From NCBI GenBank assembly GCA_010909165.1, contig MU008227.1, positions 46,016-110,015 of the forward strand: a stretch of 64,000 nucleotides of DNA, given 5' to 3'. The notes under the pieces are model-generated. The model saw nothing but the letters and a program-made list of their open reading frames with translations, was not told the origin of the DNA and searched no databases. Source of the stretch: Anthoceros angustus. Taxonomy: Eukaryota > Plantae > Anthocerotophyta. The position numbers were made by a program, and so were the translations under genes. Positions 1,234-58,619 of this stretch are shown piece by piece. Every line of letters starts with the position of its first letter. The first letter of the stretch is position 1.

Positions 1234-4200
1234 GATGTTCTCATAGAGGAACTTTGCCCTTTGTGCTTTGATCCGTCCTTGTTGTGCCTCCACCCACAGT
1301 CTGCATGGTCCGTTGCCACGGGATGTACCTCTTGTGTGTGTTTGTGGAGGCGTATAGGACCAGCGATGTCGATGCCCCATTTCTCAAAAGGGTGCTGCGA
1401 GTATGGGCAGCGCCATTAGCCGTGGGGTCGGCCTTCGATCCGTGACAAGCATCACATCTCTTCACAAACTGGTGCGTTTCCCCATACATGGTGGGCCACC
1501 AGTATCCGGCCTCCAGGATTTTCTTGGTGGTGACTTGTGCTGCATAATGTCCACCACCCAAGCCTTCATGCAACCCTTTTATGACCACCTCCGTTTCCGC
1601 CTGTTGAAGGTACCTACGCTCCGCGCCGTCTGGTCCCACCTTGAAGATACATCCGTTGTACATCCTGAAGGGACAAGCGTAGTGTACAAAGGCTTGTTGT
1701 TGGGCACGGGTTAACCCGCTTGGAATCTCCATCTCCACGGTACCCGTTCCAGGTGGGCCGTCCTCTCGTCGCTCCTTCTTACCTTTACCTGATTCGCTGT
1801 CCACAAATTTGGGGTTCCTCAGACTGCGCTCCTCCTCCTGTGTCTCCACTGCGGCCACCAATTCCTCGTCAGGAAAGTCATCCTCCACGATCCCTTGTCG
1901 GCTCCGTCTTCAACCTGGACAAGAAGTCAGCATTTTGGTGTTGCCTCCCTTGCAGTCTCCACCTCAAGGTGAACTCTTGGAGTAGTGAGATCACCTCGCA
2001 CTTAATTTGCCGGACAGTGCCTTATTCACGGATGTTTGGTAGCCGCCAAGTGATGGGCCTAGAGCCTAAACTGCTGGTTGGAAGGAGAACGTGCTGGTTT
2101 CAACCGCGACGTACCATTCCCAATGCCTCTCGCTCCGTAGTAGTGTACCTCCATTTCCATGCGTGAGCTGTCTTCCGGCATAGTAGATTGGATGATCCCT
2201 CCGCTTGTCGTCCTTTTGGCTGAGCACTACTCAGTGGCGGTAGAGCGCATCTGCATGGACACTTTACCTGGGCCGGTCGGACCCTTTTGTCTGAATACAC
2301 ATCGGAATTGGGTGGTCAGAGATCCTACGAATGCAGCGTCCCTTTACGGTGTCCAGTCCACTTATCTCTCATTAAATTAACTCCGTTAGCTTACGCTTGG
2401 CCTTTCGCAATCTTTGGATGAGCTGGCCTTAATAACTCCATCATGCCATGCGGGAATCCGCGGTTCAGCCCTTCCGGATTACAACCAGGCGTTTGTGAGG
2501 CCAATGACCACTGACACTTGTCTTGGTAAAAAGCCCTCTGTCACTTCATGGCAAACCGCTGTTGACCGATAGGGATTACTCCACGAGTCGTTTGGTAGCA
2601 TTTCTCGGATGTAGACGGATGGGTTTCCCTTCTGACTCAACACTGGCAGGTGCCAGCGTGCTTGTCTTCCTCCATGTACGCAAAAGTCGCCCGTACCCAT
2701 GAAGTCCTCTAAAAATCCTCAAGACGCGTTGGTCACCATCCGCATGAATGATCCGGTGCCCGCCATCCCAAAGGCGTCATTAGCGAGCCCCACTCCGTGG
2801 TGAACGCTAGTCTTATCCCAGTCCGACTCCCTTAGGTGCAGTTGGTTGTAGCCGGAGTATCCATCCAAGAAGGAGTAAGTACCGTCTCACCTTGTCCAAA
2901 AGAGTGTCGTCCACTTAAGGGCATGGGGAAAAATTTTCTCAGAGCTGTGAGTTTCCTCCAACTCGGCGTAGACACGGACCCGTCGCTTTCTTGGGCACCA
3001 CGACGATGCAATTATTACGCATTGGAAGATGATGTCCGCCTCCAAATATTTGTCCAGGACCTCCTTGACCTTGAGCGAGTATTTAGGATTCAGCTGACAT
3101 CACGAATCCGAATAGGCACCGCCCTCGGCTTCAGTCTATCCTGTTCCTCCCCATCGCCGAATGCCTTTCATATCCGTGACCTTGAAAGCAAACACCTCGA
3201 TGAATTCCCCCAACAACAATGTGAGGTCTCGCTTCAACTCCGCTAGCATATCCTTAAGTGAATTTTAGGAATCCTGCCTGCGGACCTCCACGCTCTTCCA
3301 CATCACGCGTGATTGACTGCCTCCCTTTCCCTCGCCACAGCTCGGCCGCCATCCTCCATCCGGGTTCATCCTCACGCATCCCCACTCGAAAGCTCGTCCG
3401 AGGTAAACCGGGTCACTTCGGGGTCCGCCACCTCACTGCTCGCTGGGTCTCCTCCCTGCCCTCGCCTCCACTGCTAGCGGCCTCACTCGAACAATTGACC
3501 ACCCGCCTCCAAAAGTGTCCCTCCCAGAGTCCATCTCTTCTTCGGACCACGGATTTTTGGAAAGGTCATCATTGATCCTCGCGCTCAGTCCCCACTGTGG
3601 TTGGAGGTGCACCTCCGTGGTGCTTACGCTTTCCGCAGAGGTGTCCTACTCCGTGATCGCTACTCACCTCCCTTACCTTCGGATCCTACCAATCGGGTTT
3701 GAAATGGATCTCCTTCCTTCCGGCAGCCATCCGGGCGAACCCTGGACGCCCAACAGCATCAGACTCATTACCGTCCGCTTGATGACCACGAAGTCCAATG
3801 TAGGTGCCCCTTATGTTGGACTGACACCCCTACCGGCTGTCCGTCCATCCCGAGGGTTTTGGTGATGGCTCAAATGCTGTGAACCCTAACCGCCGGTGGG
3901 CTCCGTGATGAGGTTGACTCAACTGCGTCCTAGAGAAGTACGCTTAATCACGCATCCAGCGATTTCTACCTGAACCACCGGCGCTCCAGGGTCCGTATGA
4001 GATACCACTCTTACCTCCACGTTCTTGGTCTTACAACCCGAGGCGTTTTGGCGTGGCTGTGTCTCCTTGATGGCCCTCCGGACTTCTTGCCGATACTTCG
4101 GATTGTCTCTTAACAACTGTCTGAGCGACACCAGGTGCTGTTGGTCCATTATCAAGTCTGCCACCTTAAAGGGCGCGGGCGGCCCCTCCGTTGGGTCGCG

Positions 4201-5766
4201 TGTCCGTCGTGATTCTTCTAGCGCTCCGCCACCGCCCCGTGGTGGCCGGACCACCTCCGGGTCCTGTCGAATCTCCTCCTGAAGCATCTCCGTCACTTCT
4301 CGAACCACATCCGGTGGAAACTGGGGTGTTGCCTTGGGTGGGTCCGCTTCCTCTACTATCGCTTCAGGAGATTTCTTGTCGGGTGATTCCTCTGACAGAG
4401 CTGCCCGATTCAACTCGCCTTCCTTGGCTGGCTCTCCCTCTTTCGCGAGAGTCCCGTCCTCCGTATCCGTGGTGCTCTCTCCATTCTTCTTCCTCTTTAA
4501 CTGCCTTCTCTCCTTTCGCTCCTTCCGGCGGCTTCGGGTTGACACCTCCAGTACCTCCAGGGCCGCCTTCTCCTCCTTAGCCGATCCCGCTTCGTACCAC
4601 TCCGTCCCAAGTTCCCTTGGCGCCTCCTCCCACTCCGCCAGCTGTGCATCTTCAATCTGTAGCACCGGCGCGGTCTTAGGGTGAGGGGGCGTAGGTGGTC
4701 GTGGCTCCCCCGCCGGGGTGGCGTAGCACACCGTCCTTGAGCGAGGGTTCGGACACAAGTCGCCGCCATGTGCCTGCACAGCATAATCTCCCTTGCAGGC
4801 GTTCAAAATCCCGTTACCTTGCGGTGGGGTATGGGCGCAGCGTTGGAGTAGTGCCCAGGTTCCCCGATTCAGACCATGGCCGGAGAATTCCCGGAGGTGC
4901 TCCCATGCGGTGCTGCATCGGGGGGCGATGCATGGATGGTCCGGCCGCCGTAGGGTACATCGTCTTGGATATCGCGGCCCCGGCGGTGCTTCCTGCACTT
5001 GGTACGCGTCCTCCCACTGCTCCTCGGACTCTTCCCCGTAGTCGTACTCCACTTGGTTTCAGATTGGAGGGCGATTAATGAATGCCCATCTTTGGTGGCA
5101 CACCGCACACCATAGATGGGTCCGAACCGTGGTGGCCGCCTTCCGCCGTTCTCTATCCTTCACCTGGTTGATCGTCAATTCTTCCACCCTCTTCATTACC
5201 CGCTCCAGATCTTCCCTCAACCCCGCTACTTCTTTCAAAGGGGTTGGATCAGGCGGAACCTCTCGCGCCGGGGCGGGCATCACGACCTCCTTCTTCTCGA
5301 CCCTCCGCTTAACTACGGGCTTTTTCTTCTTATTCCTTTGGCGAGGTTCCTCCTCCTCCATAGCATCCTCGGATTCTTCTTCGGAGGCCTCCTCCTCTTC
5401 CTCCGAAGTTACCTCAGTTTCATCGTCCTCCTCTTCCGAGGGCTCTTCATCCTCGGATTCCGACCCCCGTTTCTTTTCTTCACCGGAGGCGTCCACTCGT
5501 TTGGTGCATCGATTCCTCGTAGTTCTCCTTGCTCGGACCGCCTTACCACGCCCTTCTATGCCAGGCGTGTTTAGCCATTGGCTTGGGCAGTGACCAACCA
5601 AGCACCCATGCATGGTGGTGTGGGTGGGGTCGATCGACGTGAGGCACGATTCGTCTTCCAACCTCTCCGTCTTGCCTGCATTCTCGAGCTTAGACAGACG
5701 TAGCCTTCTTGGTCAATCCCACGGAACCTTTCCAAGAAGGCATCCTCAATGCTCGGTCGCAGGGAG
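1234..5766 (-). mobile_element. Ty3/gypsy (non-chromovirus, Athila/Phygy-like) gag-pol remnant, frameshifted, cut by the copia at 1233 and by an LTR at 5767
   Basis: Gag with acidic tract and degenerate zinc knuckle (LWCAVCHQ, 5059-5661). Protease start (VQVEIAGC, ~3950). RT remnants at ~2500-3100. RNase H YTTTEREALG (~2120). Integrase zinc finger H...GGH...GYWWPTM...CDAC (1241-1888). Confidence 0.85.
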
Positions 5767-8700
5767 TGTGGCTACGGACTTCCCTTGGGGGTTAGGAAAT
5801 AAGTTGGGTTTTGTTTTTTTCGTAGGTCCGAAGTGTAAAATAAGGCGGAAAAGGAGGAATAAGCACGGGCCGGCGCTCGGATGTACTCCGGAGTGTACTC
5901 CTCGGAGTAGGTGCGGACCCGGTACCACCCGAGCCACGGACCACACGGTATCGGGATAGGGAGTCCAAACCCACTCCGGGTCAAAAGCAGGATAAATACG
6001 CCTTGATAACTTAGAAGTTGAGTCGTGAGTCAGACGGCGCCACGTGGGCCACAGATGGAAGCGGGCATCACCCGAGCCGGGCAGTAGCCTTGGAGGCCGT
6101 TATAGCGGTATTCACGCCCAGCGTCTTGCGCAGTAATAAGGCGGAGTAGGCGGGCGCAAGGTGAGTAAGCCATGCGAGACCTCGCGCGATTCACGGGGAA
6201 GGCACCCTCATGGCGGTTACTCCCAGCAGCGGCCGGCGAGGAGGTCATTTCTGCAATCGACCTCGAGACAATTCTCGCGGTCTCTTGCGCTCACGCACCG
6301 CCCTCTGGCGCTATCTCTCCGAGCAGCTCGGGCACCTTGGCAGCTCACCTTGGGGTTGGAGGCGTGAGCAGCCGTGAGGCGCATCGTGCCAGCCGGCGAT
6401 CTCGGACAATCGTCTACAGCGGAGTAAGAAGAAGAAGGCGATGGGACCCAAGAAGGCTGCGGAGGTATGGGCGCCATGGAACTGGTGGGCGCAACATTGT
6501 GCTATCCGGACTTTGGGCCGTGGGTGGAGGAGGCGGGGGGATTGGTCGAAGAGTGGCACCTAGGCGTGTTCAGTGTATGCGGACATTTGGATGTCACCCT
6601 AGTCAGGAGTTCGCCGGAAGATGTTGGCGGCCAACAAGGAGGTTCGATCCAAGAACCTCGGAGGATCCTGAGGTGGACCTTAGTCGAGCGGCTTACACGC
6701 CCGGCGAGATTGGGCGTAGTCAGGGAACCTCAAGGCGGGGGAAAGATAGAGGCGGCGGGCGGCGTGAAGCCGGCGCGTAACAACCAAGCGGTGGTTGATG
6801 TCGACTGCTGGACGGGAGGTGAGGCGGTAGCCGGATCATTATCCACGGAACACACTCACCAGGTGGATCGCACAGTGACAATTTATTAGTGTTCTGCATG
6901 CGCTGCGGCGAGGAAAGAAGGGCTGGGAAGGATCATCTTAGCGTTCGGAAGGCCTGGTGAGGTGCGAGAAGCCACCTCCATCGGGACTATCCCCATGTCG
7001 ATCCATGTGGGGACACTCGACCTCAGAAGGATGGGGAAGCGGGCGCTCGGGAAGGGCGGCCCTCAGAGCGGAGGCGGGCAAGGCGCCCGAGGTGAGCCCG
7101 ACCCCTAGGGCCAAAGCAGGTCAGGAGGAGACGGCAGGAGGATTCGGACTCCATACGTGGGCGGACCCCTCACCTAGGGAAGTGTGGGAAGATATCCCCG
7201 CTTCCTCCTCTTGGTGCCCCACCGAGCACCAAGGCAGCAGAGTCCCGAGCGGAGCGGCCCCGACAAATTTCACCACCACCCACGACGGCAAATGAGCCCC
7301 GACGACTCCGGGGCCAAGAGGCGGAAGACGGTGCCACCCGCCAACGCAACACTCTGGACGGCACTGCGCCGCCCACGGAGTGGCAAGAGGTCAAGAGGCG
7401 TGAGAAGGGCGAAGAGACGCCAAGGAGCAGGAGGTCACCGGGCAGAACCCCACCTGAGCCGGTCCTGCCGCCGACCGGGAGAGGGCCGCCTCGAACCCTC
7501 ACCCTCCGAGCCCTGTGACGAAGAGGGCGAATAAGGAATTGGCGGCCAAGAGGGCCAAGGAGGTGAGGCTCCTGACTCAGACTCAGACCTAAGGGACCCG
7601 ATTAGGTCCGAGAGCCCAGCCCCGACTGGCCTCCCGGATCATGGAGGTCCTGGCGACTGCGTGAGATGCCCGCCCCACAACGGACTTTTGGGGCCTCACT
7701 AATGGCGCCGTGGAAGAGACACTTGTTCCGGCCACATGGACTATGCTCGGGGTCTCTGGACGGCCGAGAAGACCCAGGTGGAAGCCCAAGGAGGCGATGG
7801 TGCTCCTCCAGTGAGCTGGAGGCGCCCAGAGGCGAGGAGGAAGGCGTGCCCGGCCGCATCGAAGAGGGAAGCCGGAGGCCGAAGAGAAGTCCGTCCATTC
7901 GACAGATCGGATAAGTTTCTTCACCGGGTGAGCAAACAAGGTGCACAGAGGCCCAAGCCGGCCGAGGATCTCCGCCAACGAAGGAGGGAGGCGCAGCAGA
8001 GGCGAGAGGGCTCGCGACTGGCCGAGGCGGCCCGGCGCCCAACAGATCGGGCGAGGCTCACCAAGACGGGAGGCGGAAGCCACAAAGATCGACCGCGATC
8101 ACTATCGGCGTGATCGAACCGGGAGGAGGAGGCCGGGTAGCCGCTGCCAACTCAAGGCCGAAAGCAGTGTAGCTGAGCAAGCCGAGCCGTGAGGAGGCAT
8201 CGGAGGTCAAGACCCCGAAATGGGACCTCGTGGTGCACCGCAGGAGGCAGAGGGAGGCGGGTGAGAGAGGACAAAGAAGCGACACCTTGAGTTGCAACCC
8301 AAGACGACGGAGCAGCAGGGGTTCTCAACGAGAGAATCCAAGACTTCGAAAGCGAGAGATAGAACGCTTCCAGCCTCCGAAGACGGAGGAGAATAGGCGG
8401 CAAGGAGTTCGACGTCAAGGCCGCAGCAGGAGATGGCGTAAGTCGAGTCGAACGGGATACCGCCTCGGAGCAGCGACCGGAAAGAGTAGACGGAGAGGAA
8501 AGCACGGGAGGAGAAGCAATGGTCCGTCCGGCCAGGAAGTGAGGGGAGCTCACCTCCATGGCCCGCAACCGAAGTGAGCCGAACAACGACGTGGAGGTGG
8601 AGAACGCCGAGCGCAGCCGAAGGCCGCAGAGGTAACGGAGGCGCCCGGGACGGCTCAAGGGAGTCCGCCCGCCATACCGGTGCTTGGCCACTGAGACGGG

Positions 8701-9123
8701 CCACAGAAAGGACGACATGCCCACCGCCAGAGCACCTATCGAGGAGGGAGCGGTCGTGCCCGGCTCATGTGGAAGAGGCGACCGCTGAAGTCGATTCGAC
8801 CGCCTCCCCTACCACGCAGAGCTCCTCAAGGCTCTAGAGGTCCCGCCACCCCAGGTGGAGGGTGGACCCTGCATGGCCTGAAGGAGGTGCAAGGGAGGAC
8901 GGACTGGGACAACAAGTACCACCTGGAGCCCTAGGAGCGCCTGCTTGATTTACTCAGCAGAAGCAATGTAGGGAGAGCAACGGACGGGAGCCGGAGGAGG
9001 AAGGGTCACACCGGGAGGTAAGCACCAAGACCCCTCATGGAAGGAAGGAGGCTGATCTTGGGAGGCTGCGGAAAGGTCGCGAACCGGCATTCGGGAACCA
9101 AGGAGGGCTGGATGAGCCTGATC
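5767..9123 (+). mobile_element. 5' part of a giant gypsy LTR (starts TGTGGCTACGG) inserted in the host gag
   Basis: The same start sequence occurs at 45522 (+) and 58619 (-). It interrupts gag at a site that is continuous in the copy at ~9470-9530. It ends at a deletion junction near 9123. Confidence 0.7.
6172..9120 (+). pseudogene. Long LTR-embedded ORF of unknown function (globular N-terminus, low-complexity linker, E/R/A-rich coiled-coil C-terminus), frameshifted
   Basis: Start GCCATGCG(A)GACCTC is conserved at 6172 (+) and 58154 (-). Homologous segments occur at 10914-12850, 15822-16800 (-) and 55419-58154 (-). Confidence 0.6.
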
Positions 9124-10913
9124 ACCGGCCGATCACACTGGGACCGCCGTAGCCGTGAGCAGCGTGAGAGGCGACCGCTCAACGCGGAGAACTCCAAACG
9201 GCAAGAAGCACCAGAGACTGGTCGGATCGTGAGGGAGGAAGTAGCACCAAGTCGCGGCGGTGGGAGCGGTTCTCAACCCTTGCCGGTCGCGATGGCAACA
9301 ACGCCGACCAAGCAAGCGATTCTCTTGGAGGTAAGAAGGAGAGAGACGCCGAAACCTTCGTGGAGGATGTCTCGCAAACTTCAACGAGAAGGTTCGATGC
9401 GAGCCTTATCCAAATTGCTCCAAGGGGTCCTACGGGGACAGCCGCCGCTGGTACCGAGGAAGCACGCCGCCCCAACGCCTCCCGCAACCTTCAAGCATTG
9501 AAGGATGCCTTCTAGAAAGATTCCGTGAATTGATCAAGAAGGCTATGTCCCTTGTCCAAACTCGAGAACCAAGGCAAGACGGAGAAGTTGGGATCGAGCA
9601 TCGAACGGTTCTACGGACCAAGACCCACCCACACCACCATGCGGCGTTGGTTCGCATGGCTTATCCAAGCCAATGGCTAACGTACGGCCGCTGGCGTAGA
9701 AGGATGTGAGCAAGGCGGTCCGAGCGGAGAACTACGAAGAATCGATGCACCAACGACGGCCGAGGACGCCCAGGAAAGAAGAAAAAGAAGAACGGGGTCG
9801 GATCAAGATGAAGAACCCTCGAAGAGGAGGATGATGAGACCGAGGTAGCATCGGAGGAAGAGGAAGAGGACTCAAGAAGAATCCGAGGATGGAAGAAGAG
9901 AAGAACCTCAAGAATAAGAAGAAAAGCCCGTCAAGTCGTGAGGGTGGAGAAGAAGGAGGTTATGATGCCCGCACGGTGCGAGAGGTTCCCGCCTCGACCC
10001 AGCCTCCTTTGAAAGAAGTAGCGGTTGAGGGAAGATCCGAACGGGTAATGAAGAGGGTGGAGGAGTTGACGATCAACCGTGAAGGATAAAGAACGGCGGA
10101 AGGCGGCCACCACGTCCGGACTCATCCTATGGTGTGCGTGTGTCACCAACATGGGCATTCAAGGCTAACCGCCTCCGCACTGCGTGGAACTGTGGAGTAT
10201 GACTCACGGGAAGAGTCCGAGGAGCAAGTGGAGGACATACCAAGTGCAAGAAGCACCACCGCCGGTATCCCAAGACGATGTACCCACGGCAACTGGCCAT
10301 CCGTGCATCGACTGCAAAGACCGCATGGGAGCCCCTCCAGAATTCTGGCGGCGGTGGTCCTGAACTGGGAACCCCGCACTACTCCAACGCTGTCCATACC
10401 CCACCCCAAAGGCAACGGGACTTTGAACTGCGGTGGAGATTGTAAGCGTGGCACATGGCGTGCAAGACCAGTGTCCGAATCCTCGCTCGAGGACGGCGCC
10501 ACGCCACCCCCTGGGGAGCCGCGACACCACGCCCTCCCTAAGGCCGCGCACAGATTGAAGACGACACCGGGCGAGGAAGAGGCCAAGGAACTTGAACGGA
10601 GTGGTACGGGAGTCTGCTAAGGAGGAGAAGGCGACCGGAGGTACTGAAGTGTCAACCCGTCACCGAAAGGAGCGAAAGGAGAGGAGACAAGAAGAGGAAG
10701 AAAATGGGGACACCCAACGGATACGGAGGACGGACACCATGAAGGAGGAAGATCCAATTTAAGGAAGGCGAAGAATTGGGTACCGAGGAAGTACCAACCA
10801 AACCCCAAACGTTAGGAAGAAACGGATCACCCAAGGCAACACCCCGCCCACCGGATGTGGTTCGAGAAGTGGCGGAGATGCTTCAGAAGAGATCCGACAG
10901 ACCCGAGGTGGTC
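9124..10913 (+). pseudogene. gypsy gag (second copy), pol deleted
   Basis: Matches the reverse complement of 4250-5766 and also 14205-14580 (acidic tract, zinc-knuckle remnant WCxCHQHGH, VEYDSREESEEQ). Jumps into the LTR ORF at ~10913. Confidence 0.8.
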
Positions 10914-13900
10914 CTGGCGCTTCTCTCCTCGATGCCCCCACCCAGCAAATGCACAGAAGAGGCGGCCAGGACGGAGTTGGCGGCTCCGGCCCACTCCGCG
11001 GCCGCCACCAATCCATAACAACAACAACGGCCGAGTCTCCGACTAACGGAATCAAGAGGCGGAAGACTACCATCAGCCAACGCAGACCCAGACGGCGCCT
11101 GCGGCTCTTGCCTCTACCAACGGAGTGGCAAGAAGCGGAGGAGGCAAGTGACGGGGCCAGTGACACGCCTCATGAGCTGGAGGCCACGGCAGCAACCCAC
11201 CCGAGCTCGTTCTGCCTCCGAACGGAGAGGCAAAGGGCTGCCCCGAACCCTTCATCACCTCCGAGCCGGAGGAAAAGGGCGGAGAAGGAGTTAGCTGCCA
11301 AGAGGGCCAAGGAAGAGAGGCTCGGACTCAAAGACTAGACCTAAGGGTCCCGATTAGTCCGGAGAGCTCGGCCCCACCGCCTCCGGATCGCAGATATGTC
11401 CCTTAACGGATCGGAGATGCCCATGCCCACGGACTGGCATCTCCCGCCAGTAGTCAGTGAGGAAAACGCTGCTGGGTTTTAGCTACCGTCATGGACTGAT
11501 GCTTTGGGGTCTTATGACTACCGAGAAGACCCAGGAGGTGGAGGCCACAAGAAGGCGATGGTGCCCTCCAGAGCAGTGGAGGCACCTGATGCTAAGAAGA
11601 AGGCGGAATCCTCGCTCGAATCGAGGAGGAAAACGCCTGGAGGCGGAGCGAGAGGTCCTGACGGTCCAAAGAAGACCGACTAAGATCCTTCACCGCAATA
11701 CCTGAAGGCATGCAGGAGGCCCAAGCACGGCTGAAGACCTCTCGCAAACGGGAGGCGGCTGAAGGAGGCGGAGGAGGGTCGAGGGCGCGGAGAACGCCCG
11801 CGACCGCCGAGGCGGCCAGACCAACACCAAGCCGGCGAGGCTCGTGTGAAGGCGGCGCGGAGGCGGAAGCCAGCCAAGGTCGATCGGGATCACTACCGAC
11901 GCGATGGAACCGTGGAGGGAGACGGGCGGGTGCTGCCTAACAAGGCCGTGTGGCAGTGGCCGGGCAAAGCGAGCCGCGAGGAAGAGATGGAGGCCAGACC
12001 CCGAAAATAGGGGACCTCCGTGCACTGCAGAAGTGAGGAGCTGCAGAGCCGGAAGAACACCGAGCCGCAACTCCAAGACGCGCTTGAGCAACACGGATTC
12101 TCAACGGAGAATCCAAGACTTCGAGCAGAGATAGAGCGCCCGCCTCAAGACGGAGAATAGGCGCGATCCAAGGAGTTGGACGCCGCCAGTCAAGAAGGAG
12201 CCGGAGAAAGCCGTGAGTCGGGCGAGATATCGCCCGCCCGGAGAAGGAAGTGGCGGACCTCCGGGTAAGGATGAACGGAGGGACGAGAGCGCTGGAGGAG
12301 GAGCAGAGGCTGCTTGTCCGATTGCGGGAGGCAGAGGGGGAGCTCAGCTCCATGGCCAGCAAATTGGTGGAGCTGCAACCGCGAAGGGAGGAGGAGCACG
12401 CCGAAAGCAAAGAAGGCCGCAGGAGGTGTTTGAGGCCGCCTTGGCGGCATCAAGGGAGTCCGCCCGCCAAGGGCTTGGCAAGCGTGGCGACGGAGACCTC
12501 AAGCAGGACAACACGCCACCGCCGAGCACCTTTGGAGGAGGGAGTACCGGTGCCCGAGCCCATGGAGGAGGCAATCCAAATGTTGACTCGACTTTGCCTA
12601 CTACCACGCCGAGCTTCTCAAGGCAATGGAGGTGTCGCGCCACCCACGGTGTGGACGGATTTCGATGGGTCAAGGAGCGAGGGAGGAGGGCCCCGAGATA
12701 GCACAAGACGAGGACCTTAGGAGCTACTGCTTGACGACAACAAAGAAAGGGGCCAAGTAGGGGGAGCATGGAGGAGCAAGACGAGGGAAGGTCAGCTGCC
12801 TGAGGTAAGCACTGACCTCACCAAGGAGGGGAGGAGGGCCCCGGGGGCCGAGAAGAGGCGGCTCCGCAACCGAGAACCATGGAGGACCTGGGGTGGAACC
12901 ATTGAGAAGTCCAAATGGGGGAAACCCAGCTGCGAGTCCTGACTTTGTCCGACTGAAGAAAGGCCGGACCCCGAGGTCCGCCTTGAAGAAAGTCCGACCG
13001 TGAGGTCCAGTTTAGTGACGGACGGACCCCGAGGTCCGGACCAGGGAAGGTGCCCAAGACGGACCCAGGCGAGTCCAGACTCGAGGTCCAGACTTAAAGA
13101 AGACCGATCGAGGTCCCACCGGAGAGAAGACCTGACCCAGAGGTCCAAACTCCCGGAGTCGAGACTAGACCTCAAGTTCTGCACTGTGGAGCTGGAGGGG
13201 CTACCAACCACAGAACTATCTCTTGAGGGCCCACAACTGTGGCCCGCCACGAGATAAGAGAGGAGGGGAGGAGGATTTAGTGGTGATCGCCGCTGTCGCC
13301 GCCGCCAGTAGGCGCAATGACAGTAGTCTCGGGAGAGGTATAGGGCCCGCGGATCATCCGATTGCGCCGCATGTCGCTAGGGCTTGGCCGCCAAAGGCGA
13401 ATGGGCAACCCTGCACTCCACCACCATGTAGATAGGTGGAATAAGGGAAATAGTAGGGACATAGCGCACTGCCGCCATCGTAATAGGGTGTAATAAAGAC
13501 GCCGACCTTCGCGTAGTAAAAGAGGGCTAAGCCTAAGCAAAGTATCTTCTTGGTGTTGATGCCGCGATCTTCTGCAGCCCTTGTGTGCCTTCATGTGAGT
13601 CCCGAGTCAAAGCAGCCCGGCACCGGAGATCGATCAAGGTCCCGTGACGACCCTAACGTGTGGTGGTGTGTGTGCAGGAAGGGCGACCGGACCCTGCTCA
13701 TCTCGAAGACTCAAACGGACGGACCGGAACGCGGAGCCGTGAGGAACTTTGAGGGCGCGAGCCTTGACGGAGAGACCCGGCAGAGACCTGGAGGAGGTCC
13801 TGACCACAAGCAACCACCCGCAATTTTCCAAGGATAATGAGGAAGTGTGAATGGTGAGAGGAACGACCGTAGGGACGAGTGACAAACTTGAATGATACGG

Positions 13901-14105
13901 ACGCCGAACGGGTCCTTAAACGCTTGGCCACGCCTTCGTCCGGTGAACGCAGTTGTTAGCCGTAAAAACGAATGTGTGTGTTGAGTCCTAAACGGTACTA
14001 CGTGAGGTGAGAAACGATTAAAACGTGGCCAACGGAGCCTATCATTCTCTTGGGAACGACCTCCTTACGACATCGACGGATTGTCTGATCGCCGGTGACG
14101 CGGCA
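10914..14105 (+). mobile_element. 3' portion of the giant gypsy LTR (ORF C-terminal half, GGACC/GGTCC repeat tract 12880-13200, promoter region, ends ...GCGGCA)
   Basis: Homologous to 7200-9000 and to the inverted copy at 14581-16800. Ends in CA two bases before a PBS. Confidence 0.7.
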
Positions 14106-14107
14106 TT

Positions 14108-14124
14108 TGGCGCCTGGTCGGGAA
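14108..14124 (+). other. Primer-binding site TGGCGCCTGGTCGGGAA (degenerate tRNA-Asp-type, as in Athila-like elements)
   Basis: TGGCGCC starts 2 nt after an LTR-terminal CA and just before gag. Confidence 0.65.
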
Positions 14125-14156
14125 TGAGATCACTCCGTAGCCTAGTGGGAAGGTAA

Positions 14157-14580
14157 GTGTGGATGCGTGGAGGACGTGAGGTAGTCAAGAACGAATTGCT
14201 GAGTGAGCCGGACGTTGTGACCGCCAGAGCGCTCCGAGCGCAGGCACGTGAGAGGCGACGAGCTCAACGTGAGAGCTCCAGCCGGCAGGTAAGCACGGTA
14301 GACTTGTCGGATCGTGAGGAGGAAGTAGCACAAAGTCAGGCGGCAGTAAGGGGAGTGGTTCCTCAACCCCTGCTGGTCGTGGCGATGGCAACAACATCGA
14401 CCAAGCAAGCGTACTCTCTCTTTGGAGGTAAGAAGGAGAGGGACGCGGAAACCTTCGTGGAGGATTTCGTGTCTCAAGTAGCTTCAACGAGAAGGTTGAT
14501 CTGTGCCTCATCCAAATTGCTCTAGGGGTCTCTGGGAACAATGCCTGGTGGTACCGGAGGAAGTAAAGCCACCACGCCCC
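14157..14580 (+). pseudogene. gypsy gag N-terminal fragment (the missing 5' part of the gag broken at 5766)
   Basis: FGGKKERDAETFVEDF gag motif. Stops at the same gag position where the 5766 (-) fragment resumes. Confidence 0.75.
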
Positions 14581-16800
14581 GTGGCGCGATTTCACTGGCC
14601 ACCGGCACAATCCCGTGTCGTTGTAGTAAGGAGTCCGTTCCCAAGAGAATGATAAGCTCCGTTTGCCTTGTTTTGATCGATTCTTACCCTACTTTGTGAC
14701 CGCTCAACCTTAACACACACACAATCGTCGTTTTGCACCTAACTATTCATAATGTTCACCGAACAGGCCCGGTGTGGCCAAACGTTTAAGGACCCGTTTG
14801 CGTCCGTATCGTTCACGCACGTCACTCGTTCCTCTAGTCCGTTCCTCTCACCACTCTCACTACACTCATCAACTTTGGGAAAGAACGCAAGTGGCTACAG
14901 TCACCTCCTCCTGCTCAACCGCCTCTCCGGCTTTGCACGCCTCCCGAGTTCCTCCGGCTTCACACGCCTTCCGATCCGCTCGGCCGACGGGCCGCCCGAA
15001 CGAACAAGGGTCCCGCCGCCTTCCACACACACCACCACCACACGTTAGGGTCCGCCACTGTGACTCGATCTCTCGGCGCCGTGCCTTTCGGTGACTCAGA
15101 CTCACGTTAGCAAGAAGACACACAAAGGTCCGTAAGAAAACGCAGATCAACACCAAGAGAAGATGATTTATTCAAAGCGGCCCTCACTTTTATACTACGC
15201 CAAGGTCGACGCCTTTATTACACCTCTATTCGAACGCCAGGCCACAGCCCTAAACGCCGCCTACTATCCCCTATTCCTCCTATCGCCGCTTGGCAAGGCT
15301 GGGCCGATGGCCTCGATTCCTTCAGCACCGCGCCCAAAGCCGAGCTCCGACGATCACGTGCGCCCAATCAAATGATCCGTGAGGCGGACCCTTCCTCCTC
15401 CGGGGGTTCGGGTCGCGCCACGGCGGTGGTCGACAACGGCGGTCACCACTAAATCTTCCTCGCCTCCTCTTATCTCAAGGCCTCGCAATGGGCCTCCAGG
15501 CCGGATCTGGGCCGTGATTGGTGGCTCTCCTCCACTTCCTGAAGTTCGACCTCGTGGACCCTGGCCCCACTGAGTCCGGACCTCTAGGTCCGGGGTCTTC
15601 TCCGGGGTCCCAGGCTCGTGTCCGCTCGAGTCCGGACCTGGGTCCGGACTTGCCTCCGGGTCCGGCCTGACCCAACCCTTCCCTAGAGTCCGAACCTCGT
15701 GGTTCGGACTCACACTAGAGTTTGGATCTCAAGTCCAAACTCCTTCGTGGGCCTGGACTTGATCCGCCTTTTCTCAGAGTCCGGACTTTGTCCTGACCGC
15801 AGTTCTCACGCCTCCTGCTGATCACGGCTCATCCACCGAGCCTCCTTGGTTCCCGAATGCCCGGCGACCTTTCCAGCCTCCCAAGATCCGCCTCCTTCCT
15901 TCCATGTGAGGGTGCCGAGTGCTTACCTCCGGTAGCGACCTTCCTCCTCCCCGCCGCTCTCTCGCCGCGCTGCCAAATGGCCCTTGTGGCTCCCGTACGC
16001 ACTGCCCCGGGTCCGGCCCTCCCTTGCACCTCCTTCCCGACCTTTCCGGGAGTCCACCTCCGCCTAGGGTGGCGCAGACCTCCAGCCTTGAGGAGCTCAT
16101 GTGGTAGAGGCGGTCGGACCGACTTCATGAATCGCCTTCCTCCACATGAGCCCCGAGCACCTTGCAGACTTCTCCTCCAGAGGTGCTCCGGCAATGGGCA
16201 TGTCGTCCCCGCCGCCTCTGTGGCTAAGCTTAGTCACCGTAGGCGGGCGGACTCTTGAGGCCGCTGGCTCACATTCCTGCAGCCTCACGTCGACGCTTCT
16301 CAATTTCGTTCCAGCCCGCCTTATGGCCATGGAGCCGAGCTCCTTCGCTTCCTACAACCGGACGAGCAATGCTTTCTCCTCCGCTCACTCTTTCCCGAGG
16401 TCCGCCATTTTCCAAAGCGGGCTGTATCCCCTGCCTCGACTTCACTGCCATCTCCTCGCCGCAGCCTTTGCGACGCCGAACTCCTTGCACCACGCCTATT
16501 CTCCTCCGTCTTCAAAGCGGAGCTGGAGGCATTCTATCTCTCGCTCAAGTCTTGATTCTCTGAGAACCCCTGCCTCAAGGCCTTGGAGTTGCAACCCAAG
16601 GTGTCCTTGCTGCCCTCCAGCCTCCCCGCCGCCTCTACCTCCCGCACTGCACTCGAGGTCCCCGATCTCCCGGTGACCTCGTGCCTCCTCACGGCCGACC
16701 GTTTGCTCCTCACGCCTTCGCCTTCAAAGTTGGCTCCGCCCCACTCGCCTGCCCACCGGCTTCGATCACGCCGATAGTGATCGCGGTCGCCGCTGCAGCC
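14581..16800 (-). mobile_element. Inverted 3' portion of the giant gypsy LTR (TATAAAA on the minus strand at 15188-15194)
   Basis: Reverse-complement similarity to ~11880-14105 and 8080-9123. Terminus ...CGCGCCAC. Confidence 0.75.
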
Positions 16801-16959
16801 CGACCTGTGCAAGAGCCTCAGAACCCTTTCACTTCGAGAGAGAGGACTGCCTTGTAGGAAATCTGCCAGATCTTCCTGAACAGGGACTATGGGACAAAGA
16901 ATGGTGCATCCATGAAGAAGGCACTGATTCCACTCAGGCAAACTTTGATCCCATCCTAG

Positions 16960-38535: not shown

Positions 38536-41500
38536 AGCATCCCATGGTAATGACTGTTTGTCTTTCCACTTCCTCAACCTTCCACCCATTGACCCTCGTA
38601 GGGTGGAGTTCGCCTGTCAGATCTTCCAGTTGTACAGACCCATTTTCATAGACCATGACCACTCTCATCGGCCCTAACCATCTTAAACGTAACTTCCTTG
38701 GAAAGTCCAGATACCGGCTGTCATAGAGTAGTACTAATTCGCCCGTCCTGATAGATTCTTGCTTTCATAGCCTTCGATCATGCCGCTCTTTCCTACTATG
38801 TTGCACCTTCTGTGTTTCCTCCAACGCATCTTCTCGATCTTCCTCGTGCTTGACAAAATGCTATAACCTTGCTTCCTGGCTATCGGCTTCAGTCATACGC
38901 GCATCTTCAATGATCCTATAAGTAGGAACTTCAAACTCTACTGGCATCACGGGTGACATCCCGTAAGTGAGGTAAAAGGGCATTCTTCGAGTCGTAATTT
39001 TCTCCGCAGTTCTGGAAGCCCACAAGACCGAGTGTAATTTGCTGTCTCAATCATACATGTGCGACACCATTACCTTGGTCAGGATATTGCACAATAACCC
39101 ATTTGTCTTTTCTGTCAGTCCATTTGCCTTGGGATTATAGGGTGTTGTCTTCTGGTGTCGAATGTTGAAATAGGTCGTCATCCGTTGAGAAAATGCGTCC
39201 CTCGATCGCTCACAAATTCCAAGGGGCATCCGCACCTGGTGATAATGTTCTCAAATAGGAATTTAGCCACGGTGGGGGTCCTTGTGCATTGTGGACCACC
39301 AGAATCCTGCAGTGAGGATCTTTTTCGCCGTCACTTGTACTGAATAATGCACTCCTGCCTCTTTTGAATGCAATGCTTCTATCACAATCGCGATTTCCTC
39401 TCCTTCCAAACACCTCCTAATGACTTCATCTGGCCCCAATTTGTAGGGGATCCCTTCTTTTAGGCAATAAGGGGCAGTTTTGTGGAAAAACACCGCTCTT
39501 CCTTCCCGAGATAGTCCTGGTGGTACCTCTGCCGACTTAGGTACCTTCGAATCTCTCCATTCAGCAAGCCTCGTGGGCACGCCTCTCCTTCGCGGCTCTT
39601 CCTTCTCCTAGGCATAGACCGCTTCCCATCTCGTGTCGCGGTCTCTGTGACGCCTGCTTCTGGACTGCCGCACCCTACTTCTTCACATTCCTTTGGTTCG
39701 GTAACAATAGCTAGAGCTACCAGCTCCTCATCCGGGAACCGATCGTCTATCGCATCCATTCTTGGTCCAGTCCTCAGCCTAGAAACGAAGTCGGCGTTCA
39801 CATGTTTTTTACCTGCCCTGGTCTCTACTTCGTAATTGAATTCCTGCAGCAACAGAATCCATCTCGCAATCCGTTCGGATAAATCAGGCTTGTTCACCAG
39901 ATACTTGAGCGCAAAATGATCCACATGGAAAACAACCTTGCAAGCTAGTAGATAATGACGGAACTTTTTGCAAGAATAGATAATCCCCAATGCTTCCCTT
40001 TCTGTCGTGGAATAGTTCTTCTCAGAATCCAAGAGTTGTCGTCCGGCATAAAAGATCGGGCGATCATGTTTCTTCTCGTCTCTCTGGCTTAGTATCGACC
40101 CAATCGCATAAGCGGACACATCGATAAACAAGTGAAAAGGCTTGTCCCAGTCGGGTGGTTGGAGAACGGGCGCCACCAACAAAATTTGCTTCAAACTCCG
40201 AAGGCAAGGCGCCATCGCCACCGGTCAAACTACGCTTTTCTCTTAGCGCAACCCAAAACCCGATGAACCTTCTGTAATATCCGACTAGTCCGAGGAATGC
40301 CCGGACTTGCTTGACGGTCACAGGGGCATCCATTGCTCCTACTTTCACGACTACCTTCTCCTTGTCTACTTCCAATCCTTGCTCTGACACCCTATGGGCG
40401 AGTAAGATCCCTTCGGACATGCCGAAGTAGCACTTACTCGGATGCAACTTTAAATTCGTTTCCCTACATCTTTGCACGCATTGACGCAGATGCGTTAGAT
40501 GCGTTCCCTTTGTCCCAAATACGCAGAAATCATCAAGAAAAACCTCCATGAACTTCCTCAAAAAATCCCGAAAGATGGTGTTTACCACGCGCTGAAATGT
40601 GGCTGGAGCATAACACAACCCAAAAGGCAATTTGGCGTAAGCATAGATGCCCCAGTCGGTGGTAAAAGTGGTTTTGTCCTGGTCTTCCTTTTGCAAGGCG
40701 ATCTGATTGTACCCCGAATATCCGTCCAAGAAACTATACCTCTCGTGCCCGGCTACCGTGTCCAACACACTGTCCATGAATGGCAACGGGTGATGATCTT
40801 TCCTGGTGGCTTCATTAAGTTTCCGAAAGTCTTGGCACACCCTCACCTTCCCCTGTTGCTTCTTGGTTACCACCACAATGGGTGCAACCCACTCGCTGGT
40901 CAGTACGGGGTAAATGACTCCTGCTTCTAAGTACTGATCCAGCTGATCATTCACTACAGCCGAATACTTTGGGTTCAATCTGTACTGCTTTATCCGGAAA
41001 GGTATGGATCCTTCTTTGGTGGTCGATCCGGTGTACCCGTAGGTCTTCTGGTATACCTGTCATGTAAGTAACCTTAAATGCAAAGCAATCCACATATTCC
41101 ATGAGTAATCTTCTGAAGTCCATTTTCTCCTCGTCGGATAAATGCTTGCAGATGCGGACCTCCTTTCCTGGTGCTAGTTCTACGTTCTCCAGAGCGTCAG
41201 GATCGATCGGTCCTTCCAATCCGCTCCCCTTACTAACTCCAGAACCTTCATCTGGGAAGCTTTGCTCACTGGACCTCGCCTCCCAATAAGTTGTGTCGTC
41301 CGAGACTTCATCAGCTCTATTGGATCCATCCTCAATTGTTATATGAAAACTGTCGGAGTACTCCTCCTTGCGCTCTGCTGGATAGTACGCCTGCATACCC
41401 TGATCACTTTCCCCCTTAGTTTCTTCCATTTCCTTTAAGGTATATCCTTCTGTCAGGGACTCCGTCTCTCCTCCATAAGCATTTCGGTCCCAGCTCACAC

Positions 41501-41888
41501 TTGAGCAAGCGGGGATCATTCCCCGAAGCGATTGGAAACTGACGCGCTTCTTTCCCCAATCAAACTGGCTTTTGCTGCCATACAACCACGGCCTTCCAAT
41601 TAGCACCTGATATCCCAAATCTGAAACTGGGCGCATCACGATGTAGGTAAGAGGAAAAGAAATTTCAATCACTGCCGGTATATCAAGCACTCCTGTGGGC
41701 CTCTCGGTTTGATCGCCATCCTCGAAGCGGTTCTCGCATGCTCAAACTTGGTGTAGCCCAATTTGTTGGCCGTCTCCTCCATCATAAGGTTGACTCCTGA
41801 CCCTGAGTCCAGTGGAACATGTGGTATGAGACACCCATTCACTTCCACCGATATCTCGCTGGCCCCTAAGTCGACCAGCTCAACCACT
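38536..41888 (-). mobile_element. Ty3/gypsy pol (PR-RT-RH-INT), frameshifted, no chromodomain seen
   Basis: Protease LDSGSGVN; RT (RVCQDFRKLN, FLDGYSGYNQI, VFLDDF); RNase H (IDVSAYAIG, YSTTEREALG); integrase (TTPYNPKANG) and a C-terminal WLGP...NG motif. Confidence 0.92.
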
Positions 41889-45521: not shown

Positions 45522-46025
45522 TGTGGACTACGGACTTCACAGGGGTTAGAAAATTAGGTAGGGTTTTGTTTTTGTGGGAGGCGAAGGATAAAATGAGGCG
45601 AAAATAAGCACGGTTAGCACTCGGGCACTCCGGGAGTATACTCCGGACTCGGAGTGAGAGCGTACCTAGGCCTCGATGGCGGCAGTAGCAGGTAACCAAG
45701 GACATGAAAACATATCCTTTATTTTGATTGGCCCATAGTCCAAGGATTCATTTCCTTTAAATACTAGTTATAGGAAATAGATCCGTTATGAACGGATAAC
45801 TAGGTAGGCTAGACAAAGCCACTTAGTTTAGGTGTGAAACCAAACCGGACCCAAACCCAAACAAGGCACGATCAACGTGGGAGGAGCACCACCAAGCGTG
45901 AGGGTTGCTTTCGCATCATGGCGCAAACATCAGGAATCGAGCTGGCGTGGAGATGATGGCGCGGGAATGAGGACCGTGGGGCAAGGAACGGAGGGTAGTC
46001 TTGAAATCGTGCGGCGCGCCAGTTA
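45522..46025 (+). mobile_element. Start of a TGTGGACTACGG-type gypsy LTR inserted in the copia A integrase, cut by the assembly gap
   Basis: The first ~150 bp resemble 5767-5930 and the reverse complement of 58450-58619. Confidence 0.65.
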
Positions 46026-55418: not shown

Positions 55419-58400
55419 GAAGCTTCCAAAGCCTTGAGGAGCTCGTAGTAGCAAACTGAGTCGACGGTCGGATTGCTCTTCCACATGCGCCCGAGCACCG
55501 ATACTCTCTCGCCATAGGTGCTCCGCACCGAGCGTGCCGGCCCGTGCTCACGCCCGCTTCCATCGCTGTGTCGGCTGGGCTTGGAGCCGAGTAGAATCTC
55601 ATGAGGCCACTAGGGAGGCCTCTATCACTTCCTGGCCGCCCACCCGCCTCCAGCCTCCTTGTTCCGCACCCTCGGGCCATGGCGCTCCCTCCGCCTTCCT
55701 CAATCGTGGACCACAGCCTTCTTTTCGCCTAAGGCCCTTGCTCCTCCATTCATCCTGGCCTGAAGCTCCGCCATCTCCCTTCCCAAGCGGTCCGGCAACT
55801 CCACCCGGTTCCTTGGTTCATCCAGGTCCTTCTCCATTTCGGCGACGTCCTGCTCCTTGTTCCATCGCCTCACCTCCTCCGTCCTCAAGCAGAGCTGGAG
55901 TTGCGCTATCTCCCGCTCGTGGTTTGCGATCACTCCCTGGAGGGCTCCATGCCGCGATCGGTTCTTGGAGTCAGAGCTCTCCTTGCTTTCATCTCCTCGC
56001 CGCTGCTCTCCTCCACGCAATCGGCCCGAGCCAGCCCTCCACAGTTGGCCTCTCTTCTCGCCTAACTCGTGCTCGCCCGCCACTCGCTTCGCCAGCAGTT
56101 AGCCGGGCCCCCGCTGCCTCTCCTCCACTTGATTCCGATTCGCCGTGAATGATCCTGGCCGCTCTTAGCCACGGCTTGCCTCCCGCGCCTTCACCTGAGC
56201 CACCGCGGCCAGGGTGTTCCCGCTGAGCCGGCTGTCTCGAGCTCGCCCGCCTGCCTTCGTGCTTCCTCCAACTCTCCTCGCGCTTCGCCGATCGCAGAAA
56301 GGTCCTCCGCCTGCTTGGCCTCTTGAGGCCGCTTCATTTCAGACATTGAGGACCTGGTCCGGCTTCAATATCGGACCTCCCGCCTCCGCCTCCCGACGCT
56401 CTCCTCGATTCGGGCGAGGACTCCGCCTTCTTGGCCGCTGGCCGCCTCCACCGCCTCCCGGAGAAGCACCATGCGCCTCTGGTGGCCTCCACTTCGGGTT
56501 TTCTTTGGCGCCCATGAGGCTCCAGAGCATGATCCCATGACGGTTGCCGTGCCGTGTCTCTTCCACGGCCACGTACCGAGAGAGGCACCCAAGAAGTCCC
56601 AGTGGGTGCGGGGCATCTCCCGGGGACCGCCAGATGGCATGGCCCTGAGTGACCCGACTTGGCTCTCGGACTGATAAGGACCTCAGTCACAGTGTCCGGT
56701 CCGTCCTTCAATCTCCTTGGCCTGCTTTGGCCGCACTCCCTTTCTCCGCCCGCCTGCTTGGGGCTCCTTGGAGGTGGGGGGTCCTGGAACCGCTGCTGCT
56801 TCCTCTTCTTATACAGACTGGCTCAATGTGGTTGCTGCCTCCTCTGTGCCTTTGGGCGGCGCCCCGCCTTCTCACGGCTTCCTCCGCCTCGCCACCAGAA
56901 GTAGGAACCGTACGCCTCCTTGGCGCTTCATTGGCGGGAGCCGCTTTTCGCCTCGATTTGCGACTCTCCTCGTCCCGTGGCTCAGCCGGGCATGGTGGGT
57001 TGCCGGGTGGGCGCCGCCGCTAGCTCCCTTCCCGTAGGTGCTTCGTCCGTCGCGGGGGCCTCCGCTTCCGGAACTAGAAGGAGGGAGGCAGGAATATCCT
57101 CCCATACCTCCCGGGGCGGCGAGGGGGTCCGTTCCAGTCAAATGGAATCCCGGATCCCTTCCCAATCGTCCTCCTCCCGGGCCCGTTTGGCCTTAGGAGG
57201 TCGGACCTCCGCCTCTTGCGCCTTCGCTCCTTCCCGCTCCGCCTCTGGTAGGGCCGCCCTTTTGAGCGCCGCCCTCTTCTCCCTCCTTCTGTGGAGGTTG
57301 AGATGTCCCCATACATGGATGAGGAAGGGTGATGCCGACGGAGGTGGCTTCTCACCCGTAGCTTCCTCGGCCTCGATCCTCGGCGAAGATGATACGCCCC
57401 TGGGCCGTCTTTTTCCTCGTCAGGGGCGGCAGAACACCGAGATTGTCACAGGTGATCCACCTTGGTGAGCATGTTCCAATGGACAATGACCTTAGCCAAC
57501 GCCCTCACCCGCACATATCAAAGAAGTCCGACATCACAAATTGGACGACTGTTGCATCCCCGGCGGACATTGCCGCCTTCGCTTCCCACCTTTCCCCTCA
57601 CCTTGAGGGGCCCGAACTACTTCAATTTTCCACCCAAGTGGTTGTAAACCACCCTCGGGACCTCCACGGTCCATCTCCTGGGATCCTCCCTCAAGCTCTT
57701 GTAGCGAACCTCCTTGTTAGCAACTGCCAGCATCTTTCTGGTGTACTCGGATTTAGCGACGTGCCAAATGTCCGCATCAAGGCCAAGATGTCCATGCCAT
57801 TGCTCCACGAGCTCCTTCGTCATTCCAGGGCCGTCGGGTATCGCTTATGGACGATGTTGTGTTCTACCAGGGCTCCCATACCTCCACGCCTTGTTGGGTC
57901 CCATAGCTGGGCTTTCTCGCCGTTGAAAAATTGTGCCACGACACTCACGCCTTCCGCCGCTGGCCGCTTCCAACCACGAAGGTGAGCGGCGAGAGTGCTC
58001 AAGGCCGAAAAGACAACGCCAGAGCTGCGTCGGAGCGCGATGGACTGTGAAAACCGCCGCGAGGTCGTGACAAAGAATGGCCTTCCTCCCCGCGATGCTT
58101 GGCGGAAGGGGGCTGAGGGTGTCTTCGCCAGCCCGTAATCGCCGAGGTCCGCATGGCTTACTTCCCGCCTCTTACGCCCGCTTACTCGCCTTACGCCGCC
58201 GCATTTCAGCCTTACGTCAGCATCCGGCCGCGTGACACCGCTTATAACCCGCCCACCTGGGCAAATTTCTATCTGGTCTCGTCGGCGTTCACCTCCCTCG
58301 CCTGGCCCACGTGGCCCCGTCTGTCTAAAACACGCTCCAATTCTTAAGTTACTTTACTTGGCGATTTATCCTGGCCCCTACTCCGTGAGTGTGGTCCTGG

Positions 58401-58619
58401 ACTTACCTACTCCTGAAAGCGCGGTCCGGACCCCCCCCCTCCAGAGTGTAGTCCGTAGCTCCTCCAGAGTGTGCTCCGGAGTCCTCCAGCCTACTCCGAA
58501 GTGCAGTCCGGAGTATTCCGGACTTATTTCTTCCCTTCCGCCTTATTTCCTGCTCCACGCTTACGAAAAAACAAAAACCTGACCCATTTCCTACCTAAAG
58601 AGAGAATCCGTGGTCCACA
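55419..58619 (-). mobile_element. 5' portion of the giant gypsy LTR with embedded ORF (ATG 58154), interrupted by copia A
   Basis: Begins TGTGGACCACGG on the minus strand and is collinear with 5767-~8800. Confidence 0.75.

Follow-up and report, generated by a model that had tools for sequence, protein, structure and literature searches.

A 64,000-nucleotide stretch of Anthoceros angustus DNA (Plantae; Anthocerotophyta; GenBank assembly GCA_010909165.1, contig MU008227.1, positions 46,016 to 110,015 of the forward strand), referred to here as the window, contains the rearranged remains of Gypsy retrotransposons whose long terminal repeat (LTR) appears to be ~4.6 kb long and to enclose a long accessory open reading frame (ORF). 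Alignment of the window with itself revealed four overlapping copies, designated C, B, A', and D, which tile one ~4.6 kb unit without a break (aligned spans: C-D, 5754-8838; C-B, 7254-9106; B-A', 11881-14112; C-A', 8090-9124). Copy C (5767..9123, plus strand) consists of a TGTGG left terminus, a leader, and the whole ORF region, and lacks the 3' 1.24 kb. It is joined at a short microhomology to a 5' untranslated region (UTR) and gag, here gag A (9124..10914, plus strand), with neither a primer binding site (PBS) nor the LTR's 3' part present at the join. Copy B (10921..14105, plus strand) comprises the 3' 3.19 kb of the unit, namely the 3' two thirds of the ORF, a repeat tract, a purine tract, a TATA-like motif, and a right terminus ending in CA. 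A PBS begins 2 nt past this LTR end (14108..14124, plus strand) and is followed by a 5' UTR and the left half of a second gag, gag B, as far as an insertion site (14125..14581, plus strand). Copy A' (14582..16789, minus strand) is a 3' 2.2 kb portion that holds the ORF end, the repeat tract, the purine tract, a TATAAAA at 15194, and a right terminus that adjoins the left half of gag B. The right half of gag B lies with pol at 1241..5766 (minus strand), which encodes protease (PR), reverse transcriptase (RT), RNase H (RH), and an integrase zinc finger and is cut before the end of integrase (INT). Copy D (55425..58619, minus strand) contains the left terminus, the leader, and the ORF and is cut by a Copia LTR. 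A fifth copy, E, is a 145 bp left-terminus fragment (45522..45666, plus strand); a 51-N assembly gap (46027-46077) lies ~360 bp past it.

The leader ahead of the ORF (5767..6440, plus strand, in copy C) carries no codon signal. It contains a TATA-like TTATA at 6100, kept in copy D (58247), which could serve as an internal promoter. Past the ORF, short repeats of the GAGGTCC/GTCCGGAC type occupy 12947..13180 (plus strand; counterpart at ~15540-15800, minus strand), with a period of 29 at 12947-13038. A 25-nt purine tract (13251..13275, plus strand), 830 bp ahead of the LTR end, is kept in copy A' (15471-15454, minus strand), is followed in both copies by TTTAGTGGTGA, and is a candidate relic polypurine tract (PPT). 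The PBS agrees at 14 of 19 aligned positions with that of two related loci, L002 and L090, and may be of the tRNA-Asp type. At the join between copy C and the 5' UTR (9111-9140; ~14195-14225) there is a short stretch common to LTR and UTR, near a possible ORF stop; a microhomology deletion or a template switch is a candidate explanation for this join.

The TGTGG motif of the left terminus is present in three copies, at 5767 (plus strand), 58619 (minus strand), and, truncated, at 45522 (plus strand). An earlier annotation made from the letters alone, hereafter the sequence-only reading, had located the first two and overlooked the third. The upstream flanks of these three ends are mutually unrelated, and none of the three contains a purine tract. 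The other terminus likewise lies where it had been placed: copy B ends in ...GCGGCA at 14105, followed by TT, the PBS at 14108, and gag, and copy A' ends in ...CGCGCCA at 14582 on the minus strand. Copies B and A' share one end point. The signature of an LTR is present: three left ends carry TGTGG, the right ends at 14105 and 14582 carry CA, and a PBS lies at 14108. Of the inverted repeats proposed for the two termini, the right-hand one is imperfect. The length of the unit was obtained by two independent routes. Joining copies C and A' (5767-9123 and 15820-14582; 3357+1239) gives 4596 bp, and joining copies C and B (1433+3185, with the copy B start at ~10921 corresponding to copy C 7200) gives 4618 bp, in agreement with the ~4.6 kb first estimated. 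The repeat tract and the TATA-like motifs that had been described are also there.

The accessory ORF (6441..9121, plus strand, ending between ~8860 and 9121) consists of an N-terminal domain, a low-complexity middle, and a charged, coiled-coil-like end. It is open in none of the four copies, each of which is frameshifted, and the longest sense stop-free run in copy C is 203 codons. Differences between copies amount to 8-12 gaps per 100 bases, ~60% of them single-base. Coding constraint was assessed by a codon-lag test, in which pairs of mismatches at distances divisible by three were counted within gap-free blocks and compared with 300 permutations, with no sequence repair. The test fixes neither strand nor frame; the sense strand was read from the shared ATG (MGPK/MGPN; 6441 in copy C, 57904 in copy D) and from motifs kept between copies. 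Within the ORF, strong signals were obtained for B-D (190/495 pairs, 0.38; 0/300 permutations as high), C-B (93/231, 0.40; 3/300), and the rest of C-D (170/459, 0.37; 3/300). Two comparisons were marginal (0.39 and 0.37, with 20/300 and 27/300 permutations as high), and C-A' gave 0.33 (144/300). Gag and pol controls ranged from 0.38 to 0.48 (19, 0, and 0 of 300 permutations), and no signal was found in the leader (94/300) or in the 3' part (221/300). The accessory frame evolved under coding constraint. The sequence-only reading had described a protein of ~950 codons that begins 400-470 bp past the terminus. The ORF region is indeed there, but between its ATG (6173) and the shared ATG (6441) no codon signal was detected (39 of 118 pairs at lag 3n; 135/300 permutations; a small sample), so the frame more likely starts at 6441. 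No copy holds a ~950-codon ORF; the size was overstated, and the frame, judged from the sequence, likely spans ~810-890 codons.

Evidence that the unit has the ends of an inserted LTR comes from gag B. The right terminus of copy A' adjoins the left half of gag B, and the right half of gag B adjoins the start of copy C. When the two halves are compared with the uninterrupted copy, gag A (~9390-9560), the alignment of the left one extends to offset 94 (z 11.2) and that of the right one begins at offset 88 (z 18.8), leaving an overlap of ~6 nt that resembles a degenerate target site duplication (TSD; CTCCC versus CCCCG). Because both termini lie at the halves of one gag site, they are the two ends of one insertion, and because the same end point borders both the PBS and the gag insertion site, the integration end is the PBS-adjacent end. 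The sequence-only reading's observation that the termini abut the halves of one gag site is thus upheld, with a TSD that is imperfect.

A short LTR, which that reading had named as the finding that would overturn it, was looked for. The 670 bp leader (from C or D) has no homology to the 3' part (from B or A'), with z values of -1.6, 1.8, 1.2, and 1.3, and true copy pairs score z 26 and 46 in the same comparison. Without such homology no short LTR pair is present and the short-LTR reading fails. Three other candidates were also rejected. An Ogre-type ORF upstream of gag does not fit, because in copy A' the end of the ORF lies ahead of the integration end as well; a DNA transposon with terminal inverted repeats does not fit, because the PBS and gag come after the end; and a permuted-repeat Gypsy element (A-internal-B-A-B) does not fit, because the integration end and the PBS-adjacent end coincide. 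The tiling, the termini, the gag junction, and the lack of homology between leader and 3' part bear out the central proposal of an ORF within a ~4.6 kb LTR. We hold with good confidence that the ~4.6 kb unit is a true LTR, so that both ends receive the ORF during reverse transcription. Several points weigh on the other side. Within the window, where the LTR copies are all partial and rearranged and both pols are cut off by other insertions, there is no intact ORF, complete element, PPT-to-LTR junction, or clean TSD. With 8-12 gaps per 100 aligned bases between copies, the junctions could be assembly artefacts. Copy B, taken alone, also fits a tandem element sharing a short LTR.

The present order of the pieces can be reached in more than one way. 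In the interval shared by all copies, C and A' are the most alike of the six pairs (0.858 versus 0.736-0.805) and the sole pair at chance codon periodicity (0.34 versus 0.38-0.44), a combination more in keeping with two LTRs from one element than with two independent insertions. Based on these sequence comparisons, we somewhat favor an explanation in which one element, to which gag A belongs, had C as its 5' LTR and A' as its 3' LTR and inserted in reverse orientation into gag B. The present order would then result from an inversion, accompanied by deletions, that either took place afterwards or was introduced by the assembly. In the alternative that corresponds to the sequence-only reading, the LTR is equally long, and C and the 3' part of A' form one solo LTR in gag B, broken up when it recombined with another LTR in inverted orientation. 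A single crossover in the C-A' homology (8090-9124 with 16789-15819) would indeed yield the present order and a unit of exactly 4596 bp. We nevertheless find this less likely, since no other pair is as alike as C and A', since codon periodicity is missing across this homology (29/86 pairs, a small sample), as expected for two LTRs of one element, and since gag A directly adjoins copy C. The two-LTR and the solo-LTR explanations alike require the ORF inside the LTR. As the joined solo LTR is only one of the two, we infer, rather than observe, that the ORF is retained in solo LTRs.

If the family had an ordinary short LTR (~0.83 kb, starting with the 13251 purine tract and ending at 14105) along with an Athila-type 3' extra ORF, the TGTGG ends would be occasional mis-primed or rearranged products. 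Exactly such a layout is found in the closest relative, L002, the purine tract and the TTTAGTGGTGA after it are kept in B and A', and gag A precedes copy B, an order that a tandem array would also show. The account is made quite improbable by the three TGTGG ends, whose flanks are unrelated and one of which lies at the gag insertion site, paired with a U5 end, and by the facts that no copy is seen to begin at the short-LTR start and that both 3' parts run upstream into the ORF. Least of all do we credit a chimera of a noisy long-read assembly or a permuted-repeat element, since, for all the indel load of the repeats (and the 34 gaps and 6 substitutions in 5650 bp between the window and a contig of run X1, see below), a chimera would not bring the two termini together at a single gag position and leave a TSD-like overlap, and a permuted repeat would have a PBS-adjacent end different from its integration end, which here are the same point.

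How an ORF could have entered the LTR is suggested by relatives among 159 loci that we compared. L002 is the closest of these to both window pols. On its collapsed circular contig, pol is followed by a purine tract, a sense ORF of 742 aa, another and near-identical purine tract, a ~1 kb LTR, a PBS, and gag; the purine tracts (3757-3770 and 6560-6573) bracket the extra ORF, and TG follows the second only. In L001, a purine tract and then TGTGG lie ~75 bp past pol, and a 606-aa ORF, homologous to the 742-aa ORF of L002 (27%, E 4e-19), lies 769 bp further on; the contig ends 215 bp beyond this ORF. No other holder of this ORF family was found among the 159 loci. With a profile of the L001 and L002 ORFs, the N-terminus of copy D, a spot chosen by eye beforehand, ranks first of 1710 window chunks (E 0.027). 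By this comparison the L002 ORF, which stands outside its 1 kb LTR between two purine tracts, is probably homologous to that of the unit.

It should be noted that the link from L001 and L002 to the unit is weak, and that several results count against it. The profile misses copy C (125/200 shuffles score as high), a frameshift-aware scan puts the copy D tile behind three unrelated places (even though just 2/200 shuffles reach the D score), and single-sequence tests score within the shuffle range. A DNA likeness of L001 to the unit leader was dropped, as it ranked 20 of 24,152 tiles and had no nhmmer match; having failed this empirical control, L001 does not show an LTR-internal ORF. Searches of the unit copies with 269 locus ORFs by tblastn gave noise only, and three viral-contig scans gave no matches.

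A relative with two purine tracts around an ORF outside its LTR suggests capture by a shift in plus-strand priming. Priming would move from the downstream to the upstream purine tract, so that the unique 3' region (U3) would take in the 3' extra ORF, and the old 0.8-1 kb LTR with its relic purine tract would persist as the 3' end of the new LTR. We judge the case for this route to be evenly poised. An extra PPT is described for Athila4 and Calypso in the available part of PMC2829016; the same text reports that upstream-primed plus strands are normally outcompeted, which speaks against it.

The accessory protein was searched for by sequence and by fold. None of 108 candidates proved to be a homologue of an in-frame ORF query, and Pfam gave no match to 15 frame translations of the four copies or to five natural ORFs of the unit. 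The ESM Atlas scores for a natural ORF of copy C were all under 0.8, PDB sequence searches found no match, and the Athila and Transposase_32 profiles match neither the window ORF nor the L001 and L002 ORFs. A first fold model of the relative's domain, made from two rows (predicted local distance difference test score, pLDDT, of 42), had no structural match, and VANC21 did not appear. A second model, of the L001 domain, made from seven rows including five Athila-type ORFs (pLDDT 54), placed VANC21 bound to DNA (9lnk_A) first of 48,161 chains, with Z 3.4, a root mean square deviation of 4.8, and 146 of 190 residues aligned versus 39-80 in the other 49 rows listed. Foldseek with the second model found no match. 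This chain of two steps weakly suggests a VANC21-like fold for the accessory protein. Telling against such a fold, the Z of 3.4 is tied within 1 Z with many rows, the query is a pLDDT 54 model of a relative, and the five Athila-type rows used in it are not significantly kin (hhalign E 0.21).

A VANC-like protein is also compatible with the repeat tract, with the lack of a hydrophobic segment, and with a high CpG content (observed/expected 0.84-0.97 across the LTR-unit family versus 0.49-0.66 for three Copia stretches), none of which is specific; high CpG can also reflect GC content or youth, which tempers its use here. Guided by the fold model, we tentatively propose that the protein may bind the element's own U3 repeat tract and limit silencing. 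If the unit is a true LTR, U3 contains the ORF, with the main TATA downstream of it (15194 in A'). Were the leader to supply an internal promoter, solo LTRs would stay self-contained genes acting in trans. Alternatively, the protein could be a structural, env-like, or particle-associated coiled-coil factor and not an anti-silencer. Its C-terminal part is charged and helical, Athila sense extra ORFs are often called env-like (PMC7264820, available part), and coiled-coil pentamers are predicted for an Athila domain (PMC13547354, available part). We regard this as rather unlikely, because the sense frames of all four copies show no hydrophobic segment (the highest Kyte-Doolittle mean over 19 residues is 0.99; frameshifts could hide one) and because the best, if weak, match to the modelled domain of the relative is a DNA-binding anti-silencer. 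Of the functions suggested by the sequence-only reading, anti-silencing thus gains slight backing from the VANC21 match of the relative's domain, and a particle or env role gains none.

Pol places the element within Gypsy. The order PR-RT-RH-INT is found in element B, the element of gag B, where a tblastn match to L002 gag-pol runs from 4392 to 1302 on the minus strand and Integrase_H2C2 is present. Between RH and integrase, a 785 bp stretch of element B corresponds to 241 residues of L002 pol, which leaves no room for an additional RNase H (aRH) there, a limit that still allows an aRH elsewhere in a complete element. Tat elements with aRH (TatI-III, Ogre, Retand) were rejected, as there is no such room between RH and INT. 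A related Gypsy PR-RT-RH-INT region (38570..41888, minus strand) lies across a Copia block from copy D and is by position a candidate partner of it. The RTs nearest to this one are Riccia sorocarpa and metagenome proteins at 60-66%, the named ones being those of Riccia sorocarpa (62-66%), which points to a non-seed plant as the likely host, and the best matches of 120 proteins to the element B pol are metagenome proteins and one Riccia protein. In a quick tree, which included neither Phygy, Selgy, and Tat references nor the element B RT (too broken), the D-side RT falls in a clade of 15 rows together with Riccia and metagenome proteins (Shimodaira-Hasegawa-like approximate likelihood ratio test, 88), apart from a 13-row angiosperm Athila clade. 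We thus classify the element provisionally as an Athila-like non-chromovirus without an extra RNase H. Among more distant Gypsy loci, L060, L069, L070, and L078 carry another family of 3' extra ORFs with an N-terminal Cys/His zinc-finger-like motif, 40-99% alike. L080, L082, L090, and others are eukaryotic Gypsy contigs inside prokaryote genome bins, probably contamination; the PBS type of L090 is that of L002.

Members of the Athila clade mostly carry a tRNA-Asp PBS and a 5-bp TSD. As far as the available parts of PMC6317226 and PMC7264820 describe Athila, the element resembles it in RT-RH-INT without aRH, a similar PBS, possibly a 5-bp TSD, and a long sense accessory ORF. It differs in that the Athila ORF is internal, between pol and the 3' LTR, whereas here both termini of the repeat flank the ORF, which places it inside the LTR, and also in that its RT falls outside the angiosperm Athila clade of the quick tree and that there is no ATHILA or Transposase_32 match. 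Those texts place plant extra ORFs in the internal region of LTR elements (PMC7264820, PMC6317226), and their function is called a long-open question (PMC7264820). Plant non-chromovirus LTRs of up to ~5 kb (PMC6317226) are alike in size and in tandem repeat tracts; the available part of that source describes no coding frame in them. The sag/naf system of mouse mammary tumor virus (PMC9412291, available part) likewise has an accessory ORF in U3 that is doubled at both ends, with a reported internal U3 promoter, one that here we can only infer; it belongs to a retrovirus and not to a plant retrotransposon, and the proteins are unrelated. VANC21 of the VANDAL DNA transposons (PDB 9lnk; PMC13547354, PMC12844716, bioRxiv 10.1101/2024.09.27.615353, each in its available part) may be alike in its fold (DUF1985/PMD-like), in a coiled coil, and in short repeats carried by the noncoding DNA of the element itself, and the VANC DUF1985 resembles PMD (bioRxiv 10.1101/2024.09.27.615353, PMC13547354). 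It differs as a gene of DNA transposons, and the likeness here comes from a low-confidence model of a relative. No description of LTR-internal ORFs of such elements was found in the literature searched, most subscription papers being outside its reach.

Taken together, we consider it reasonably probable that the window records a 4.6 kb LTR of an Athila-like Gypsy element with a long coding frame, that this LTR grew by a plus-strand priming shift, and that its protein, on a weak prediction, is a VANC-like anti-silencer. The feature itself, an Athila-like accessory gene relocated into the LTR, is real; the window is a noisy, rearranged example of it and contributes a clear insertion junction and a candidate capture route. 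Hosts clear such elements mainly through solo-LTR formation. An LTR-borne gene doubles at every insertion, so that each insertion likely carries two copies of it, and it would outlast solo-LTR formation. In an unlikely but broader scenario, a non-seed-plant Athila-like lineage would have shifted its accessory gene into U3 by a plus-strand primer switch, the 4.6 kb LTR would be a cassette of internal promoter, VANC-like anti-silencer, target repeats, and element promoter, and solo LTRs, normally dead ends, would supply the protein in trans. The origin is open to testing because a relative bears a probably homologous ORF bracketed by two purine tracts. Should the protein prove VANC-like, sequence-specific anti-silencing, so far shown for DNA transposons, would extend to LTR retrotransposons. 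Gene-bearing LTRs could also escape annotation through limits on LTR length or through an ORF taken as a host gene.

The remainder of the window bears on the quality of the assembly. Three host genes lie within 21910-32000: an Ariadne/IBR E3 ligase (minus strand), an eIF2D/SUI1 gene, and a DRMBL metallo-beta-lactamase ORF of 851 codons. The last seems to continue into a part that looks DNA-ligase-like in its translation, a label that does not come from a Pfam match. At 22-32 kb these genes sit amid nested Copia and Gypsy remains. Over unique DNA at 26035-31717, 34 gaps and 6 substitutions in 5650 bp separate the window from the contig of run X1, which is possibly the source sample and is not counted as independent support. 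Within 4000-17000, three bins have no coverage by run X1, an observation not counted as evidence. This excess of gaps over substitutions means that the frameshift damage is probably in part assembly error; the assembly likely has indel errors even inside host genes, and frameshifts here call for caution. In the comparison that showed gapped LTR-unit copies, one Copia LTR pair has no gaps at all, so the noise is uneven and true decay is inseparable from assembly error.

Two Copia-type LTR pairs lie between copy D and the neighboring Gypsy pol. The outer, short pair (41889-42050 and 55257-55418, 98% alike) bounds a 13.5 kb block, joins copy D to that pol, and has no matching target duplication. 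The second pair (47494-47661 and 54101-54268, 99% alike) is nested in this block. Elsewhere, with no relation to the LTR unit, two short tandem duplications occur at 35626-35796 and 61819-61989, with periods of ~68 and ~86 bp.

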